Positions 1 through 10,618 of a stretch of DNA of 64,000 nucleotides are shown here, in pieces (position 1 is the first letter of the stretch; every line of letters starts with the position of its first letter). Below the pieces are notes generated by a model. The model worked only from the letters and a program-made list of their open reading frames with translations, was not told where the DNA came from and searched no databases. Source of the stretch: Gemmatimonadota bacterium (GTDB lineage Bacteria; Gemmatimonadota; Gemmatimonadetes; Palauibacterales; Palauibacteraceae); assembly GCA_046758745.1 (NCBI GenBank), contig JBHIAV010000005.1:32001-96000 (forward strand), read 5' to 3'. Both the position numbers and the translations under genes were made by a program.

Positions 1-1628
1 TAGATGTGCCAGTGCTGCCGGATGCCGCTCCGCGCGAAGCCCATCAGCCCCATCAGCCAGGTGAAGGTGACCGCGAGGATGAAGAGCGCGTACTGCGAGC
101 GGGCCGGCATGTGGCCCCAGCGGATGGCGCCGCGCGATTCCGCCCCGCGCATGAGCGCGATGTCGATGAAGACGACGAAGAGGATCGCGGCCAGCACGGC
201 GAGCACCTGGTAGACGCTGAACCCGATGCGCACGATCGCGGTGACGAAGTAGCCGTACACACCGTAGAAGACGACCACCGCCGTCGCGGCGGCCAGCGCG
301 ATCCCCTGCGTGATCGTCCCCGTCCGTGCCCAGCTCACCACCGGGGTCTTGTTGGCCCGCCGGTACAGCATGAAGGAAAGGAAGGTGGTGAGGATCATCA
401 GGTTCACCGCGGTGTTCTTGGCGCTCATCACGCCGAGCACGCCGAGGAAGGGATGGTGCGTCCCTCCCATCGCCGCGATCTCGTCGCGGGTCGCGATCAT
501 GGTGTGCGGGGTAGCCCACACGATCACGCCGAGGACCAGGAGGAGGAGCATCCACTTCACGTACTTCGTGAACCGCTCGGCCCCCGGGATCCTCCCCATG
601 CCGATCCACAGGTAGTAGTTGCCGGCCAAGAAGAGCACCCCGATGAGGAAGGCCTGGACGATCCACAGCCAGCTCATGAAGCCGCCCATCATCGTGATGC
701 CGAGCTGCTCGTTGAACTCGTAGACCTCCCGGCCCAGGTAGTAGCCGGCGAACGGGAGGACGATGAGGGCTCCGATGGCGATGAAGTTCCCCACGTAGCC
801 CATCCAGTCGTAGTGCGCCCGCTCCTCGTCGGTACGGGCGGCGAGGAAGCGGTAGGCGGCGTACGCGCCCACAATGGCCCCGCCGAACACCACGTTGGCG
901 ATGAGCCGGTGGATGTTGATCGGCATCCAGGTGGCGTTGGCGATGGCGCTCCACGTCTGCACGGTGGCCGGGGCCGTGTCCGGTGTCGCCTCGGCGGGCG
1001 GGCTCATCATGTAGGTGAGCCATCCGTTGGCGATGAACATCACCACCGTGCCCCACACGTTGAGCAGGATCCCGAGGCTCCAGTGCCACGCCTTGGCCCG
1101 CCCCGCCTTCCACCGCTCCCACCCGTAGTAGTACAGGTACAGGGTGAACGACTCCAGGAAGAAGAGCCCGACGTACAGCCACATCGAGGGTCCGAAGACG
1201 GCCGTCATGTATGCCCAGAAGACGGGGTACAGGGTCGAGAGGAAGAAGACGAGGATGGCGCCCCAGATCGCCGTGGCGCTGTAGGCGATGAGGAGGAGGC
1301 GGGTGAACTCCCTGGCCAGCCGGTCGTATCTGTCGTCCTTGCCGAAGATCCCGATCGCCTCCACCACCACCGCGAACATCGGAACCCCGAGCACGAAGGC
1401 CGCGAACATGAGGTGCACCTCGGCCGCGATCCACACCGCTCCGCGCGCGCCCACGATCGGGAAGTCTCCGTACGCCCGGACCGCCTCCTGCGCGACGAGC
1501 GGATCGGCCGCGAGCAGCAGCCCGGCGGCGATCGCCCCTCCGACGCCGAAGGCGCGTCTCCCGACCCTCCTACCAGCCGCAGCGGGCGCCCGCACGCGCC
1601 GCGTGCCGAGGCGGGGGGATCTTCTCAC
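1..1628 (-). CDS. Cytochrome bd-like oxidase subunit I (CydA superfamily, non-canonical Nitrospira/OR-N-like); runs off the window edge
   Basis: Not in the ORF track because it has no stop in the window. Manual translation from GTG at 1628, which overlaps the upstream TGA, gives a polytopic membrane protein with EVHLMFAAFVLGVPMFA, FFLESFTLYLYYYGW, WMPINIHRLIAN, GTHHPFLG and RSGIRQHWHI. Confidence 0.85.
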   Translation of the reverse strand, partial: MRRSPRLGTRRVRAPAAAGRRVGRRAFGVGGAIAAGLLLAADPLVAQEAVRAYGDFPIVGARGAVWIAAEVHLMFAAFVLGVPMFAVVVEAIGIFGKDDRYDRLAREFTRLLLIAYSATAIWGAILVFFLSTLYPVFWAYMTAVFGPSMWLYVGLFFLESFTLYLYYYGWERWKAGRAKAWHWSLGILLNVWGTVVMFIANGWLTYMMSPPAEATPDTAPATVQTWSAIANATWMPINIHRLIANVVFGGAIVGAYAAYRFLAARTDEERAHYDWMGYVGNFIAIGALIVLPFAGYYLGREVYEFNEQLGITMMGGFMSWLWIVQAFLIGVLFLAGNYYLWIGMGRIPGAERFTKYVKWMLLLLVLGVIVWATPHTMIATRDEIAAMGGTHHPFLGVLGVMSAKNTAVNLMILTTFLSFMLYRRANKTPVVSWARTGTITQGIALAAATAVVVFYGVYGYFVTAIVRIGFSVYQVLAVLAAILFVVFIDIALMRGAESRGAIRWGHMPARSQYALFILAVTFTWLMGLMGFARSGIRQHWHI

Positions 1629-2986
1629 GATCGGTCCCTGCCTCCGGCGAAGAACGGGAGGCGACGCGAGAAGTCGATCGGCATCTCCGAGCGAATCCTC
1701 TCCATGAGCTCCGGCGTGACGCGGGCGTGCCCCTTCCGGCGGGCGTACGCCTCGACCCGGCTCACCACGACACCCCGCACGAAGGAGGGGATCCGGGCGA
1801 GCCGCGCCTCGGCCTCCGGCGTCCACTCCAGCTCCGGGAGCTGCGCCATGCCGTACAGCACCGCGCGCCGAGGCTCCACCACCGGGAGGTCGCCGGCGGG
1901 CTCGTACGCGCAGGAGGGATCCTCGGCCAGGAAGTCCCCGTCCCGCGCGAAGGCGCGTGCCCGGCACCCGCCGCACACCTTCCGGTACTCGCACCTTCCG
2001 CACTTCCCCCCCAGCTCCCCCTCGCGCAGGAGGCGGAAGAGGGGAGCCGAGCGCCACACCTCCGCGAACCCCTCCGACCGCAGGTCGCCGGCCACGGCCG
2101 GAAGGTAAGGGCAGGGCGTAAGCTTCCCCTCGGGAGTGATCCGGCAGTACTGCACGCCGCATGGGCAGCGGGTGCCGTAGTTGAGGAGAGGCGACTCGGG
2201 GTCGGACTCCCATGCGTGACGCATGATCTGCGGCTGGCACTTCGAGCGGACGAGCATCCGGCCCCGGTATCTCCGCTCCAGGATGACGAGGCCGCGCAGG
2301 ACCTCCTCGTTCTCGACCGGAGCGAGGCCCCGCATCCCCTCACCCCGACCGGTCTGGACCAGGAAGTACACGTTGAACGACACGGCCCCCGCATCGGCGG
2401 CCCACTCGGCCAGTGCGGGTATCTCGTCCCGATTCCCTCGCGTGACCGTCGTCTGGACGATGAAGTCGAGGCGCGCATTCCTCAGCCGTTCCACCGCCCC
2501 CAGCGTCTCCTCCAGCGCTCCGGATCCGTGCCGGAAGCGGTCGTGGTAGCGAGGGTTCAGCGAGTCGACGCTGATCGCCGCCCCGCTCACTCCGGCCTCC
2601 TGCAGGGACTCGATTCGCTCCACGGTCAGCCGCGTGCCGTTCGTCCCGACGACCACCGTGGCGCCCCCCTTGTGGGCGTGTGAGGCGATCGCCTCCAGGT
2701 CGTCGCGGAGGAGGGGCTCGCCCCCGCTGAGGATCAGCAGGGGAGCGGGGTTCAAGGCGAGGATCTCTTCGATGATGCGGAAGCACTCCCCCGTCGTGAG
2801 CTCTCCCTCCGCGGAGTGCCACGTTCCGGCGGAGATATAGCAATGCGCGCACGCGAGATTGCAGCGACGGGTGACGTTCCACGCCACCACGTGGGGAAGG
2901 TAGCCGTCGCCGGCAGCCGGCCGTGCCCCCGGACGCGCCGCCACGAGGGCCTCCGGCCACTCGGGTGCGCCGGCCGGCCCGCTCAC
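1625..2986 (-). CDS. Radical SAM/SPASM protein (AhbD/NirJ-like) with C-terminal PCP_red-like domain
   Basis: WNVTRRCNLACAHCY (CxxxCxxC), SGGEPLLR, SPASM cysteines CPCG..YC..PCPY..KCGRCEYRKVCGGCRARA..DPSC; tail WTPEAEARLARIPSFVRG. Confidence 0.88.
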   Translation of the reverse strand: MSGPAGAPEWPEALVAARPGARPAAGDGYLPHVVAWNVTRRCNLACAHCYISAGTWHSAEGELTTGECFRIIEEILALNPAPLLILSGGEPLLRDDLEAIASHAHKGGATVVVGTNGTRLTVERIESLQEAGVSGAAISVDSLNPRYHDRFRHGSGALEETLGAVERLRNARLDFIVQTTVTRGNRDEIPALAEWAADAGAVSFNVYFLVQTGRGEGMRGLAPVENEEVLRGLVILERRYRGRMLVRSKCQPQIMRHAWESDPESPLLNYGTRCPCGVQYCRITPEGKLTPCPYLPAVAGDLRSEGFAEVWRSAPLFRLLREGELGGKCGRCEYRKVCGGCRARAFARDGDFLAEDPSCAYEPAGDLPVVEPRRAVLYGMAQLPELEWTPEAEARLARIPSFVRGVVVSRVEAYARRKGHARVTPELMERIRSEMPIDFSRRLPFFAGGRDRS

Positions 2987-3098: not shown

Positions 3099-5108
3099 CT
3101 ACTCGCCCATCGGCCCGGGAACGTCGGCCTCCTTCCTCATCAGCTCCTCGACGGCGCGCCTCGCCTCCTCGGGGGTGGCCGTCTTGAAGTCCACCGGACA
3201 GCGCTCCACCTGACGCTCGATGTCGCGGATCGGGCAGCGCGTTACCCCCGCCGCCTTCGCCTCATCGATGAACTTCCGCATCTCGGGACTCACCCCATCC
3301 AGTCCCGCCGCCTCCGCCCGCGCCTGCTTCGCCTTGAGCTCGTTGAACATCACGAGCATGGTGTCCATGTCGAACTCGTCGGCTTCGATCATCGCCTGCT
3401 TGTTGTCGTCCATCACCATCGTGGTGACACGCCACATGCCGTGGCGCCGGGCAAAGCGCTCCACCGTGTTGCGGGCGAGAGGGCGCGCGATGAGCGGGAC
3501 CTGGCGGAGACGGTCGTACGCCTCGTGCGTCCACACGACCGGGTCTTCCTCGGTCCGCTCGCGCACGGTGGCGTGTCCGGAATAGGGGCACTTCGTCTCC
3601 ACGGGTCGGGGCGACTCGAAGACGTCCGCGTCGTGCGTCTCCACGACGGTGCGCTTCATCGCCTCCTCCGCCTTCACCTCGGCCAGGGCGAGCTCCTCGG
3701 CATCACCGACACCCATGATGAGCTGCATGTGGGTGGGGAGTAGCCTGCGGATCGCTCGGTCCAGCCACTCGTTCGTGACGGTCGGCAGTTCGGGCGGCGT
3801 GTGCTCCACATTCTCGAGAACGAACTCCTCGACCGCCTTTCGGGCGATCCCGAGCGCAAAGGGAGGGACCCGAAGGATTCGCACCTCGGCCTCCGGCGCC
3901 CACTCCAGACCGGTCTCGCCGTCTTCCTCGATCCATGGGATCTCGTCGGGTCGCACGTCCGTCGTCCCGATGAGGAGCACGCTGCACGGCGCGAGGCGGA
4001 TCAGGTTCTCGGCCTGCGACCCCATCTCCGTGCCGTCGACGCGGTGCGCCCCGTGTCGGGCCAGCACCAGCAGAGTCGGCTCGACCTCCTCGGCCCACTG
4101 GAGCACCACCTGGAAGGGCTTCCCGATGAGGATCTGCGTCGCGAGCTTGACGTCCGGGTACTCCTTCGCCATCGCCTCGGCCCGCTTGAGGTTGGCCTGG
4201 CAGAGACGGAGCAGACCCTTGTCGATGATGTTGTTGTGCAGCTCCTCCTGCTCCTCGAACTTGAAGACCTTCGAGGCCTGCACGGAGAGGACGTCCTTGA
4301 TGTTGTTGAAGACGACGTGGTGGTACTCGACGTCGAAGGCGCTGCACACGAAGAGCTTGGCCCCGAACTCTCGCGCCATCTCCAGCGCCATCCGCATCGC
4401 CTTGTAGCAGTAAGACGATCCATCAATGCACACCATCCACCGTCCGCCCTGTAGCGGCCGGTCGTCACGCACGATGAGGACATCCTTGTGCACCGAACGG
4501 ACCACGCGGGAGACCACGCCGCCGAGCTGCGAGTAGGGCTGACGTCCGATGCCGTGCGCCCCTATGGCCAGGAGGTCGTAGCGTCGCCCGGAAGAGCCGG
4601 CGAGCTTCCGCTCCGAGTCTTCTTCCTCCGCCACGAGGCGACCGGTCTCGCTGATCTTCACGTCGCTGCGAACGACGTCGCCGCCGTCGTATCGGGCGGC
4701 GATGTTCGGATCGAACCCGATGAGGCTCGGGAGCTGGCCGCGGCCCTCGTTCGCCTCCCGGATGATCTCCTCGAAGTTGATCCCCTCGAGGAGCTGCCGG
4801 GTGAGCGGCGCACCCGCCTCCGAGCAGCGCTGGGCGACCCGGTCCAGAAAGCTGTCCGCGATGAGCTGGAGACCCTTCTCGATCAGCTTGTCGTGAATCT
4901 TCCGCTGTCGCTTGATCTCCTCGGAAGTCTGGAAGCGAGCGGGGAGCCCGCTCTCCAGCTGGCGGAAGCGAATGTCGTGGAGCCGCGCTGCGTACACGTG
5001 GTTCGCCGTGATGCGGCCGCCCGACCGCGAGCACAGCTCGATCGCGCGCTCGAGGGCCCAATCAGAGTGGACCGAGTTGTCCACGGGAACGAGCAGCTCA
5101 CGGTACAT
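3099..5108 (-). CDS. Tandem universal stress protein (2x USP) with two PCP_red-like domains and a Cys-Pro-containing tail
   Basis: MYRELLVPVDNS..AL and LLAIGAHG..LGGVVSRVVR (USP1); WMVCIDGS and LLVLARHG..MGSQAENLIRLAPCSVLL (USP2). Start placed at ATG 5108 after a GAGG. Confidence 0.85.
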   Translation of the reverse strand: MYRELLVPVDNSVHSDWALERAIELCSRSGGRITANHVYAARLHDIRFRQLESGLPARFQTSEEIKRQRKIHDKLIEKGLQLIADSFLDRVAQRCSEAGAPLTRQLLEGINFEEIIREANEGRGQLPSLIGFDPNIAARYDGGDVVRSDVKISETGRLVAEEEDSERKLAGSSGRRYDLLAIGAHGIGRQPYSQLGGVVSRVVRSVHKDVLIVRDDRPLQGGRWMVCIDGSSYCYKAMRMALEMAREFGAKLFVCSAFDVEYHHVVFNNIKDVLSVQASKVFKFEEQEELHNNIIDKGLLRLCQANLKRAEAMAKEYPDVKLATQILIGKPFQVVLQWAEEVEPTLLVLARHGAHRVDGTEMGSQAENLIRLAPCSVLLIGTTDVRPDEIPWIEEDGETGLEWAPEAEVRILRVPPFALGIARKAVEEFVLENVEHTPPELPTVTNEWLDRAIRRLLPTHMQLIMGVGDAEELALAEVKAEEAMKRTVVETHDADVFESPRPVETKCPYSGHATVRERTEEDPVVWTHEAYDRLRQVPLIARPLARNTVERFARRHGMWRVTTMVMDDNKQAMIEADEFDMDTMLVMFNELKAKQARAEAAGLDGVSPEMRKFIDEAKAAGVTRCPIRDIERQVERCPVDFKTATPEEARRAVEELMRKEADVPGPMGE

Positions 5109-7350: not shown

Positions 7351-7706
7351 GGGACGAGCGTGTGACCGTCCTCGTCATACACGGTGATCGCGTCCACCGG
7401 ACAGGCGGCGCACGCCCGCAGGAGACGCTCTCGCCCCACCGCCTCCGGAGTCGTCAGCACCGCGATCTCTTCCGCGTCCAGCGCGAACGCCGCCGGCGCT
7501 TCGGCGATGCACTCCGCGAAGCCGACGCACAGGCCCCGGTCGATCGCCACGCGAAGCCTCCCGACCCGGCGGTCGCACCGCGCATCCGCGATGGCTTCCG
7601 GCATCCGGCCCGCAGCGAGGACCGGCGACTGTCCCGGCGCGGCCTCCTCCCGCCGGGCAGCCGCCGACCCGGCACCGCGAGGGGGAGGGGGGACGGATGC
7701 CGTCAC
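7347..7706 (-). CDS. Small single-cluster ferredoxin (3Fe-4S type)
   Basis: VAIDRGLCVGFAECIAEAPAAF...ACAACPVDAITV. Start uncertain (GTG 7706 or ATG 7604). Confidence 0.8.
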   Translation of the reverse strand: MTASVPPPPRGAGSAAARREEAAPGQSPVLAAGRMPEAIADARCDRRVGRLRVAIDRGLCVGFAECIAEAPAAFALDAEEIAVLTTPEAVGRERLLRACAACPVDAITVYDEDGHTLVP

Positions 7707-8152
7707 ATCCCCTCGAGGCCGAGCTCCCGACGTGCCCGATCCATGATGGCGGGAGTGATCTCGGCGATGCCCCGCTCCCTCGCATAGTCGATGTAGATGC
7801 GCTTTACCATCCCGCGCACGAAGGAGGGGACGGCCCCCAGCCGTTCGATCGCCTCCACGCTCCAGCGCACCGTGGCGGCCGACGGCTCGGGCGGTGCGGT
7901 ATCCGCGAACGCCTTCTCCCGGCCCTCCGCCAGAGAGCCCCGCACCATCTCGAAGGGCTGTTCGGGCACCGCACGCCCCCCGATCCGGACCCCGAGGGAG
8001 GCCACGAGCTGCGTCTCCATGGGGTTGGTCAGCAGTCCGACCCGGTGGTCGCACGACGGGCAGCGGAAGGCGGCCGCCAGCGTGCCGTCCCCCGGGAGGT
8101 CCCGCTCCTCGAACACCATCTGCTCGTCGCACTCCACGCACAGGAACTTCAC
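7703..8152 (-). CDS. Zn-ribbon plus PCP_red-like domain protein
   Basis: CVEC...CPSC at the N-terminus; C-terminal WSVEAIERLGAVPSFVRGMVKRIYIDYARERG. Confidence 0.8.
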   Translation of the reverse strand: MKFLCVECDEQMVFEERDLPGDGTLAAAFRCPSCDHRVGLLTNPMETQLVASLGVRIGGRAVPEQPFEMVRGSLAEGREKAFADTAPPEPSAATVRWSVEAIERLGAVPSFVRGMVKRIYIDYARERGIAEITPAIMDRARRELGLEGM

Positions 8153-9036
8153 GCCGCCTCCTCGCCCCCCAGGAGGGTCGCGGCGATCGTCGCCAGTGCC
8201 CTGCCCGCCGGACGATCGAGGGCGCCGAGCGGGTCTCCCTTCTCCGCCAGCGCGGCGCTCTCGGGATCAAGCGGGACGCGCCCGAGCAGCGGGATTCCGA
8301 ACAGCCCGGCCAGAGACTCACCGGCATCGCCTCGGAAAAGAGGCCGCACCGCTCCACACTCCGGGCAGGCGTACCCGGACATGTTCTCGATCACACCCAG
8401 GGCGGGCATGCCCCGCTCCCGGGCCTCGCGGAGGGAACGCTCCACGCTGGCGCGGGACGCGTCCGAGGGGATGGTGACGACCAATGTCCCCGAGAGGTCG
8501 GGAACGAGTTCCGCGAGGTCGATCATGCGCCCCGTACCGGGCGGAAGATCGATCAGAAGGAGATCCAGCTTCCCCCACTCCACGTCCCCCAGGAACTCGC
8601 GCAGTGCCCCCTGCTCCTGCGCTCCCCGCCACACGAAGCTCTCCGAGGCGGGCTCCTTCCAGGCGAGAGGTCGTCCCGCCTCCAGAAGCAGCTCCATCGA
8701 CATGACCCGCACTCCCGCCGGGCTCACCGCCGGCACCACCGCCGATTGCTCCACGCGGAGCTCTCCCGGCGACACCCCCGACAGGCGGGCGGCCGTCGGG
8801 CCGTGAAGGTCGGCGTCGAGCAACCCGACCCGGGCCCCTGCGCGAGCGGATTGGGCGGCCAGCAGGGCTGCCACGAAGCTCTTCCCGACCCCGCCCTTTC
8901 CGCTCATCACGGCCACACAGCGTTCCACCAGCTCGAGGCGCCGGCGCACTTTTTCGCGCTGCGCGGTCACCTGAGCGACGAGGTCGGACCGGTCCCGGCC
9001 GAGGAGCTCCGAGTAGGTGCGGAAACCGATCGTCAC
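8149..9036 (-). CDS. Mrp/ApbC/Nbp35 family P-loop ATPase (Fe-S cluster carrier)
   Basis: SGKGGVGKS, LLDADLHGP, WRG, DLPPGTG, ENMSGYACPEC. GTG start at 9036 overlaps the upstream stop. Confidence 0.88.
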   Translation of the reverse strand: MTIGFRTYSELLGRDRSDLVAQVTAQREKVRRRLELVERCVAVMSGKGGVGKSFVAALLAAQSARAGARVGLLDADLHGPTAARLSGVSPGELRVEQSAVVPAVSPAGVRVMSMELLLEAGRPLAWKEPASESFVWRGAQEQGALREFLGDVEWGKLDLLLIDLPPGTGRMIDLAELVPDLSGTLVVTIPSDASRASVERSLREARERGMPALGVIENMSGYACPECGAVRPLFRGDAGESLAGLFGIPLLGRVPLDPESAALAEKGDPLGALDRPAGRALATIAATLLGGEEAA

Positions 9037-9530
9037 AGGTCCCAGCCGGCGCGGGCCAGCATCCACAGGTTGATGAGCACGACGACCACGGCCGTCACGT
9101 AGAGCGCCGCCGGGAGGCGGGCCTCCGCAACGGGCAGGAAGCCCCGCCGGACGAGGGCGGGGAGGCGGAGCGCGTGAAGGAGCCACACCGCCCGCGCGAA
9201 CCACGGATTCTGCCAGCGCCACAACCCCCAGAAGACGACGGCCACGATGGCCGCGCCGAGGAGGAGCCACACCCAGACCGCACCGCGCTCGGCCGGCAGG
9301 ACGCCGGCCCGAGCCGCGGCGATGACGGCCGCCTCGTACAGGAGTCCGACGTGCAGATAGACAAACGCCGCCTGCCGGAACTTGACGGCCCGCGCCGGCG
9401 CGTGAGGCAACCTTCGCGCCCGGCGAGCCGCCGGCTCGGCCGAACCGGGCCCGTCCGCCACCGCGCCTTCCGGACTCTCCGCCGCTCGGCTCCCCGCCAT
9501 ACTCTCTTCCGTCTGGGGTCTTTCGCTCAC
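9033..9530 (-). CDS. Hypothetical membrane protein (about 4 TM segments)
   Basis: Hydrophobic segments; translationally coupled to the Mrp gene. Confidence 0.65.
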   Translation of the reverse strand: MSERPQTEESMAGSRAAESPEGAVADGPGSAEPAARRARRLPHAPARAVKFRQAAFVYLHVGLLYEAAVIAAARAGVLPAERGAVWVWLLLGAAIVAVVFWGLWRWQNPWFARAVWLLHALRLPALVRRGFLPVAEARLPAALYVTAVVVVLINLWMLARAGWDL

Positions 9531-9985: not shown

Positions 9986-10618
9986 GTGAGCGACGAGGTC
10001 GGCGCCGGCGGGAGTCCCGCCTGGCTCCTCGGCGCGGCGGCGCTCTTCCTCCTGCTCCTGGCGGCTCTCGTCGCGACCTCCCTGTGGCGCCGCGAACCTC
10101 CGGCCTTTCCCATCACCCACCGGACGCCTCAAGAGGCGGGAGACTCGCTCGGCCGAGGCCTCGTGACGCTCGACGCACGGGACCGGCGCGCCTGGGTGCG
10201 CTTCGACTTCTCCCGCTCCGCGGTCGTGGAGAGCGGGGAGCCGGCGGGCTGGGATGTGGCCGCTCGCCGCCATCGATTGATCGTCAACGGTGGCCAGGGC
10301 TTCGCCGGGCACGGAGGCGTGATCGAGGTCACCGGCACGCCGTACGAGGCGGTGGGCGAGGCACCCGACGAGGGGTACACGGGATCCAGGGTCACCGCGG
10401 GAGGCGACTCGGTCAACTCCGTCTTCGACGGCTGGTACCGCTACGGCTTCTTCTCTCACCTGCTCGAGCCGAAGCCGGCCACGTACATCGTGCGAACGGC
10501 AGACGGAAGATATGCGAAGCTGCGCATCCTCAGCTACTACTGTCCGGGAGCGGAGCCCGGCTGCCTCACCTTCGAGTACAGCTACCAGGGAGCGGGCGGA
10601 ACGAGGCTGGCGCCCTAG
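9986..10618 (+). CDS. HmuY-like heme-binding protein with N-terminal membrane anchor
   Basis: LDARD..WVRFDFS, WDVAARRHRLIVNGG and WYRY...YIVRTADGRYAKLRILSYY resemble HmuY family motifs. Confidence 0.75.
   Translation: MSDEVGAGGSPAWLLGAAALFLLLLAALVATSLWRREPPAFPITHRTPQEAGDSLGRGLVTLDARDRRAWVRFDFSRSAVVESGEPAGWDVAARRHRLIVNGGQGFAGHGGVIEVTGTPYEAVGEAPDEGYTGSRVTAGGDSVNSVFDGWYRYGFFSHLLEPKPATYIVRTADGRYAKLRILSYYCPGAEPGCLTFEYSYQGAGGTRLAP

Follow-up and report, generated by a model that had tools for sequence, protein, structure and literature searches.

A tandem universal stress protein subfamily with four near-invariant histidines, encoded beside radical SAM and bd-like oxidase genes

The closest described relatives of the protein considered here are the tandem universal stress proteins (USPs) Rv2623 (3CIS) and TTHA0350 (3AB7/3AB8), which carry loops of the type G-x2-G-x9-G(S/T), the motif of ATP-binding USPs (PMC3673472). 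In Rv2623, region 44–58 is described as a flexible loop, and dimerization places the ATP pockets of the two opposing chains next to each other (PMC2682197). UspE/YdaA shares the tandem fold and has His pairs, 117/119 and 193/244, that have been proposed as metal ligands (PMC4750201). Outside the USPs, HemW is proposed to pass haem from the cytoplasm to a respiratory complex in the membrane (PMC10114771). Little has been established about what ATP-binding USPs do, and we found no haem-binding USP in the literature searched. Here we analysed a 64,000-nucleotide window of a Gemmatimonadota genome (GCA_046758745.1, contig JBHIAV010000005.1, positions 32,001 to 96,000), in which one gene encodes a tandem USP of 669 amino acids (P0001) with two C-terminal PCP_red domains. 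Each of its USP domains bears a His-containing insert, and the four His are essentially invariant across a family whose members are publicly named merely ‘universal stress protein’. We give roughly even odds (a probability of about 0.5) to the reading that this protein is a nucleotide-gated carrier, presumably of haem or coprohaem, that serves the adjoining radical SAM enzyme and bd-like oxidase block.

Paired histidine inserts and their conservation

The gene and the features of its two inserts are as follows; rows refer to an alignment of 504 homologues described below.

3099..5108, minus strand: tandem USP with two PCP_red domains, 669 amino acids (translation; Pfam Usp, PF00582, 118 bits against a cut-off of 24; PCP_red 54 bits against 32.5, in two stretches)
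4869..4991, minus strand: insert 1, residues 40–80, comprising helix 41–50, a turn and the N-terminal extension of helix 62–98 (model and alignment)
4977..4979, minus strand: His44 codon (H in 501/504 rows, 3 gaps)
4893..4895, minus strand: His72 codon (H in 504/504 rows)
4212..4334, minus strand: insert 2, residues 259–299, comprising helices 262–271 and 276–281 and the start of helix 284–314 (model and alignment)
4320..4322, minus strand: His263 codon (H in 502/504 rows, 2 gaps)
4236..4238, minus strand: His291 codon (H in 502/504 rows, 1 gap, 1 Phe)

In each USP domain, a predicted helical hairpin that follows strand 2 carries the pattern His-x3-Phe-x23-His. A sequence-only reading of the window had placed paired inserts with identical His-x27-His spacing at 4212..4979, and this observation is real: both 37-residue segments are present, His44–His72 and His263–His291 are each 28 residues apart, and the span is exact, running on the minus strand from the start of the His44 codon (first base, 4979) to the end of the Leu299 codon (last base, 4212). 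The nine positions that the inserts have in common are also those it had listed. Its further claim, that the inserts are alike in domains that are otherwise divergent, fails, and with it the idea that the inserts are more conserved between the domains than the rest: their identity of 9/37 compares with 7/40, 10/41 and 9/38 in three flanking segments. The insert identity equals the domain average, and therefore the match within this sequence alone is no more than an old duplication would leave. What stands out is the family-wide invariance of the His, rather than the resemblance of the two inserts in one protein.

That invariance emerges at two depths of sampling. Of 8000 candidates in a first search, 1984 were scored as relatives; the 119 close homologues, those listed besides the query, are 70–81% identical to it and belong to Gemmatimonadota wherever they are named. 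A search of 50%-identity representatives gave 194 matches at E<=1e-30, of which the best 150 were used. We aligned 116 sequences: the query, 98 of the 150 representatives (fragments and most N-terminally extended forms were left out) and 17 of the 119 close homologues. Although pairwise identity in this alignment has a median of 40% and a minimum of 26%, His44, His72, His263 and His291 are invariant in 116/116 sequences, as are F48, E52, L55, F267, Q287 and the loop glycines, with R69 near-invariant. Five further His in the protein are conserved in no more than 3–21%. The region used to score membership contains the insert, so members that had lost it would rank lower; the drift of these other His serves as the internal control. 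In an enlarged set, to which locus-derived proteins and a third clade were added, 591 sequences pass E<=1e-30, and removal of 40 fragments and 47 duplicates left 504 near-full-length homologues. All four His are present in 499 of these. Four of the five misses are gaps only, and the fifth (P0234) combines a gap with a Phe in a garbled USP2; one dropped fragment (P0210) likewise has a garbled insert. The conservation check that the sequence-only reading had proposed was thus run and came out in favour of the His.

The motif it had drawn, H-F-L-Q-H-I-KGL, holds in part: both domains keep the H, F, H, L/I and G; of the two Gln, Gln287 is invariant and Gln68 is kept in 74%; and the Lys of KGL is not kept (consensus R 31%, S 18%). 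In the 116-sequence alignment the His have conserved aromatic and aliphatic neighbours (F48, M/L51, L55, F267, L274, F282, F284 and I295), so that invariant His pairs lie in a hydrophobic or aromatic setting, as in bis-His haemoproteins. A search with the pattern H-x3-F-x23-H-x3-[ILVM]-x2-G gave 4 occurrences in the 6.15 million six-frame residues of the genome, 2 of them in this gene. H37 is conserved in 99%; we rejected it as a family-specific ligand because ordinary USPs carry an equivalent His.

Where named, the more distant members belong to Nitrospinota, Manganitrophus, SAR324 and Mariprofundaceae; Nitrospirota; Chloroflexota and Clostridia; and Anaerolineae, Methanoculleus, Methanospirillum, Methanobacterium and Asgard archaea. 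One clade of four-His USPs (P0316-P0432) is made up of Anaerolineae, Methanomicrobiales and Asgard archaea. Searches of plasmids and of viral contigs found no family members. One member (P0136) has an N-terminal match, below cut-off, to the PNPOx-like split barrel, a fold that includes haem-binding proteins.

This strongly conserved feature defines a USP subfamily that is so far undescribed and that has a probable cofactor site. Full-text searches of openly available articles that combined USPs with PCP_red, with radical SAM, with haem, with bd-like oxidases or with metals gave no description of it among the listed matches, judged by title and the opening of the abstract. ‘Universal stress’ is absent from the main texts of 10.1101/2021.01.16.426971, PMC9040806, PMC12342949 and PMC10839748, although the OR-N operon supplement of the preprint may show the genes, and a term search of the archaeal USP review PMC12159084 gave nothing on PCP, haem or histidine; PMC3413700 yielded nothing further.

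Fold and nucleotide-binding loops

The remaining parts of the protein, other than its Cys-Pro motifs, are these.

4464..5108, minus strand: USP domain 1, residues 1–215 (AlphaFold model; match to Rv2623)
4584..4745, minus strand: extra USP1 insert, about residues 122–175 (predicted local distance difference test score, pLDDT, below 50 at 130–148; distant matches skip it)
4518..4562, minus strand: USP1 nucleotide-binding loop G183-x2-G186-x9-G196-G197 (G183 502/504, G186 503/504, G196 504/504; position 197 is S in 263, G in 204 and T in 37)
3963..4448, minus strand: USP domain 2, residues 221–382 (Pfam best stretch 225–380; model)
4017..4061, minus strand: USP2 nucleotide-binding loop A350-x2-G353-x9-G363-S364, which holds H355 (position 350 is G in 320 and A in 173 of 504)
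3729..3911, minus strand: first PCP_red domain, about residues 400–460 (limits by eye; Pfam counts two stretches)
3399..3533, minus strand: second PCP_red domain, residues 526–570 (Pfam best stretch 526–569)

The fold is that of a standard tandem USP, an alpha/beta fold in two copies, and the best Foldseek and VIA matches are tandem USPs. The nearest are Rv2623 (Z 29.2, root-mean-square deviation 2.9 Å over 276 residues) and TTHA0350 (Z 26.3 over 237 residues), with an identity of only 20–27% in the structural alignments. The AlphaFold2 model of residues 1–385 (mean pLDDT 89) shows each insert as a helix and a turn that lead into an N-terminally extended helix 2, and the model of a Methanoculleus homologue (mean pLDDT 89.7) has the same ordered insert. 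The protein differs from Rv2623 and TTHA0350 in its C-terminal PCP_red domains and in that each domain exceeds the Pfam model by about 20 residues (156 residues align to 135 positions), which form an ordered His-bearing hairpin in place of the flexible loop 44–58 of Rv2623. It is also distinct from UspE/YdaA, in which the His pairs lack the x27 repeat spacing, and it scores 25.6 bits against the UspE cut-off of 227 (NCBIfam NF008380).

No haem protein is among the top-listed fold-search matches, lists that are filled by USPs. Sequence searches of the PDB returned generic USPs and PCP_red domains and no solved structure from the four-His family, and a search of the ESM Atlas with residues 250–315 returned only short generic USP clusters (0.81–0.82, within the chance range). 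The extra 54-residue insert of USP1, found in Gemmatimonadota members, is modelled at low confidence, and distant homologues align in two stretches around it.

Loops of the G-x2-G-x9-G(S/T) type are kept in both domains. At the family level the sequence requirements of an ATP-binding USP, the loop motif and an Asp after strand 1, are present, with D10, D229, G183, G186, G196, G353 and G363 near-invariant; this protein itself departs from the motif once per domain, with G197 in place of S/T and A350 in place of G. A fifth conserved His, H355 (4044-4046, minus strand), lies inside the USP2 loop and is present in 494/504 rows and in 93% of the 116-sequence alignment.

Covariation between the inserts

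In a mean-field coupling analysis of the 504 rows, many top-ranked couplings fit neighbouring USP elements when compared by eye with the model; others include L51-N292 and R47-C303. Some tie the inserts to the nucleotide-binding loops (F59-S364 and I187-V265), and I187 is also coupled to A310. When 183 Gemmatimonadota-like rows were removed, pairs between insert 1 (40–86) and insert 2 (259–305) made up 16 of the top 150 against 6.4 expected, and two control blocks gave 6 and 7 against about 16 expected. At z>=4 there are 12 such pairs in the real data and 0–2 in four tree-based simulations of independent sites, an imperfect null with 178–187 effective sequences against 143 in the real alignment. 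Six chosen pairs exceed z 2.5 in both halves of the alignment when it is split into unrelated halves, but they were picked from the full set and are therefore not independent. The symmetric block, between the tip of insert 1 and the mid-helix of USP2, contributes 0 of the top 300 pairs.

This weak coupling suggests that the two inserts pack together, probably between chains. Reasoning from USP topology, such contacts are hard to make within one chain and would fit an Rv2623-type dimer with interdigitated hairpins, which is suggestive only. As insert 1 is coupled to insert 2, pairing of the His may be across domains or chains, and a single site made of all four His is as probable as a separate one in each domain.

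Gene neighbourhood

Downstream of the USP gene lie the genes for a radical SAM–PCP_red protein, a bd-like subunit I and two cytochromes c, with caa3-like oxidase genes beyond them (frames past the bd-like gene were assigned by eye). Upstream are an ABC pair, a ferredoxin, a CxxC–PCP_red protein, an Mrp ATPase, an HmuY-family gene and hemC. The neighbours that we placed are:

1625..2986, minus strand: radical SAM/SPASM enzyme with C-terminal PCP_red, AhbD/NirJ2-like (Pfam; TIGR04055 293 bits, TIGR04545 286.5 bits, cut-offs 500)
1..1499, minus strand: cytochrome bd-like subunit I, start not fixed, ending 204 bases beyond the window (PF01654, 64 bits)
7703..8152, minus strand: small CxxC and PCP_red protein (near the USP gene in 70/80 Gemmatimonadota loci)
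8149..9270, minus strand: Mrp/ApbC-like Fe-S carrier ATPase, true start inside the frame (PF10609, 215 bits; 64/80 Gemmatimonadota loci)
9986-10618, plus strand: HmuY-family haem-binding gene (21/80 Gemmatimonadota loci)

Among 151 genomes of the phylum, which include the unpublished G057 (counted only as a genome without the block), 40 have a USP orthologue (E<1e-100), 41 the bd-like gene and 41 a radical SAM orthologue (E<1e-170). The latter two genes mark the same 41 genomes, which include all 40 with the USP; in the additional genome (G120) the radical SAM gene lies at a contig start. In 80 GTDB loci the radical SAM gene is present in 70 and the bd-like gene in 64, and in the 56 loci of at least 12 kb the counts are 55 and 53. 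Among the 80 distant metagenome loci, many of them short, clustering assigns the radical SAM cluster to 53 and a stricter tblastn finds it in 45; 11 have a HemY-family gene, 11 a bd-like subunit and 30 a CopD/DUF4149-like gene. In these loci (L082-L161) the HemY-family gene and the CopD/DUF4149-like membrane gene never share a locus; they may stand in for each other in a single task or simply mark different lineages. A distant module (USP, Mrp, CxxC–PCP_red and radical SAM) on a 9.6-kb contig (G052:C4, L164) is split by toxin–antitoxin-like and other genes; its genome has this distant USP and radical SAM gene and no bd-like match to the present query, and the module has possibly been transferred or mis-binned.

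The radical SAM neighbour has Radical_SAM and SPASM domains (Pfam) and, by eye, the C-terminal motif CX2CX5CX2CX17C, which is the domain and auxiliary-cluster arrangement given for AhbD in PMC10114771. AhbD and NirJ are its best NCBIfam matches, but it scores 287–293 bits against cut-offs of 500 (286.5 for the AhbD haem b synthase profile, TIGR04545) and is fused to PCP_red; seven distant orthologues reach 263–341 bits for AhbD against the same 500. The host genome has HemE, HemH and a ChdC/chlorite-dismutase-family gene (HemF was not found in this genome, which is 87% complete), and the orthologue is absent from 110/151 genomes of the phylum. The neighbour is therefore probably not a housekeeping haem synthase, and we rejected a plain housekeeping AhbD on these grounds and on its scores. 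It looks like a dedicated paralogue and could be an anaerobic coprohaem decarboxylase, a role proposed for AhbD-like enzymes in the review PMC10114771. In one metagenome locus (L082:3790-6305), the PCP_red-bearing radical SAM gene directly adjoins a gene that scores 499/500 bits for AhbD, which suggests that the two are distinct paralogues.

The label OR-N for the bd-like oxidase is taken from the taxa of its homologues and from 10.1101/2021.01.16.426971, with PF01654 as the single profile tested here. Oxidases of this kind are uncharacterized and have been proposed as terminal oxidases of Nitrospira, Nitrospina and Manganitrophus (PMC9040806, PMC12342949 and PMC10839748), that is, of nitrite- and manganese-oxidizing bacteria.

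The Cys-Pro tail

The tail of the USP protein contains three Cys-Pro (CP) motifs.

3585..3590, minus strand: motif 1 (C507; Cys in 119/119 close homologues)
3231..3236, minus strand: motif 2 (C625; Cys in 119/119 close homologues)
3195..3200, minus strand: motif 3 (C637; Cys in 119/119 close homologues)

All three are kept in every close homologue, and at least one CP is found in the tails of 28 of 55 long representatives. They resemble the Cys-Pro haem-regulatory motifs, of which CP is the best-known form (PMC6356037), and differ in being mainly limited to the Gemmatimonadota clade. Many distant members have CxxC rubredoxin-like domains between PCP_red repeats in place of the Cys-Pro motifs.

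A candidate haem carrier and its alternatives

The protein probably holds haem or a metal for the assembly of respiratory enzymes, judging from its residues and its neighbours. The sequence-only reading had seen in the inserts a bis-His haem or metal site and in the protein a cofactor chaperone or sensor rather than a generic stress protein. Invariant His, an ordered insert in two AlphaFold models and a gene context of haem and oxidase assembly speak for it; the covariation allows the His to pair across domains or chains.

In the carrier reading that we prefer, this specialized tandem USP would use its four invariant His to bind an iron tetrapyrrole (haem b or coprohaem) and act as carrier or substrate holder for the adjoining AhbD-like radical SAM enzyme, which in turn would serve the bd-like (OR-N) oxidases and their cytochromes. 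Two chains may dimerize as in Rv2623 with their nucleotide pockets facing, so that the hairpins of USP1 and of the partner chain’s USP2 would interdigitate and gather the four His, with room for at most two bis-His haems per interface. Nucleotide binding might then open or close the four-His site, the PCP_red domains could dock the protein onto the radical SAM enzyme and the Cys-Pro tail might provide a lineage-specific transient haem site. The proposed hand-over recalls HemW, with the difference that HemW is itself a radical SAM protein and the candidate carrier here is a USP beside a separate AhbD-like enzyme. The fullest form of this idea, an ATP-gated dimer that is the first haem-binding USP, clamps a tetrapyrrole between His hairpins, feeds the AhbD/NirJ-like enzyme and jointly with it makes or inserts a special haem for OR-N oxidases, is doubtful.

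Several results weigh against the carrier reading. The helical register inferred from the coupled pairs 43-80 and 45-73 offsets His44 and His72 by about two turns along the hairpin and offers no obvious bis-His geometry within it. The coupling signal has the imperfect null described above, and its enrichment was not reproduced in two unrelated halves of the alignment, where the insert block accounted for 2 and 9 of the top 150 pairs against 6.4 expected. The counts of USP, radical SAM and bd-like genes reflect one linked block among kin and hence provide no independent evidence, and the radical SAM gene was undetected in 13 metagenome loci of at least 9 kb, some of which end soon past the USP gene. 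Homologues named Methanoculleus, Methanospirillum and Methanobacterium fit poorly with an oxidase-only role; to our knowledge, these genera lack cytochromes. CP motifs are absent in 116/117 members of the archaeal and Anaerolineae clade (the remaining one has at least one), and such a motif alone does not imply haem binding (PMC6356037). A survey table in PMC3004389, whose columns we read as ahb without the header, lists four genes for Methanoculleus marisnigri and none for Methanospirillum hungatei; it is compatible with haem in the former and not in the latter. His-based Zn/Cd sites are also documented in a tandem USP, UspE/YdaA (PMC4750201).

This last precedent, in which His pairs bind the metal, is among the grounds for a different ligand: the four His might form a non-haem site for Cu, Zn, Fe or Ni, which would supply metal to the oxidase or to the radical SAM enzyme, or would sense metal or redox state. 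The invariant E52 and Q287 lie close to the His, a CopD/DUF4149-like gene follows in 30 of the 80 metagenome loci, SCO genes occur in two examined loci, rubredoxin-like domains are found in distant members, presence in methanogens suits a non-haem role and one Nitrospira bd-like oxidase has putative copper sites (PMC8115632). However, E52 has no conserved USP2 counterpart and may just pair with R69, the CopD match is weak (34 bits against 195) and the most constant neighbour is a radical SAM enzyme of the tetrapyrrole type. The family also has no conserved Cys/Met cluster, such as is typical of cytoplasmic copper chaperones. The site of UspE/YdaA, the Nitrospira oxidase and the methanogen members keep this a serious rival, if on balance an improbable one.

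The His might instead serve the nucleotide site or the oligomer, by phosphate contacts across the dimer, by aiding hydrolysis or by supporting the hairpin, in a nucleotide-sensing regulator of the radical SAM enzyme that has no cofactor of its own. The insert begins right past the strand-2 residue that contacts adenine in USPs (PMC3673472), the loop glycines are as invariant as the four His, R47 and R69 are conserved basic residues and the couplings F59-S364, I187-V265 and I187-A310 tie the inserts to the loops. Yet known ATP-binding USPs work without such a His pair, and the strict retention of His, with no swaps to Arg, Lys or Gln in about 500 sequences, would suit metal coordination better than phosphate contact, which makes this account quite unlikely. 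Very improbable, and largely refuted by the conservation counts, is a generic stress USP in which the His pattern is a mere leftover of domain duplication. Its public names and an insert identity no higher than the domain average would agree with that, but the four His are kept at identities down to 26% as other His drift, the distribution tracks one gene block and the ordinary tandem USP of this genome (contig C15) lacks the motif.

A direct test can draw on four named residues and on a soluble fragment of 385 residues. Should the USP and the radical SAM enzyme act together as maturation factors, expression of these bd-like oxidases in a laboratory host may depend on the pair. The presence of the subfamily in methanogens and Asgard archaea suggests that its role with tetrapyrrole or metal is older and more widespread.

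Elsewhere in this genome lies another gene for a bd-like subunit I (G000:C12:26537-27760; L163 5890-7917, minus strand), with 53% identity to the first and with cytochrome c genes of its own; a search of the genome gave no second USP orthologue.

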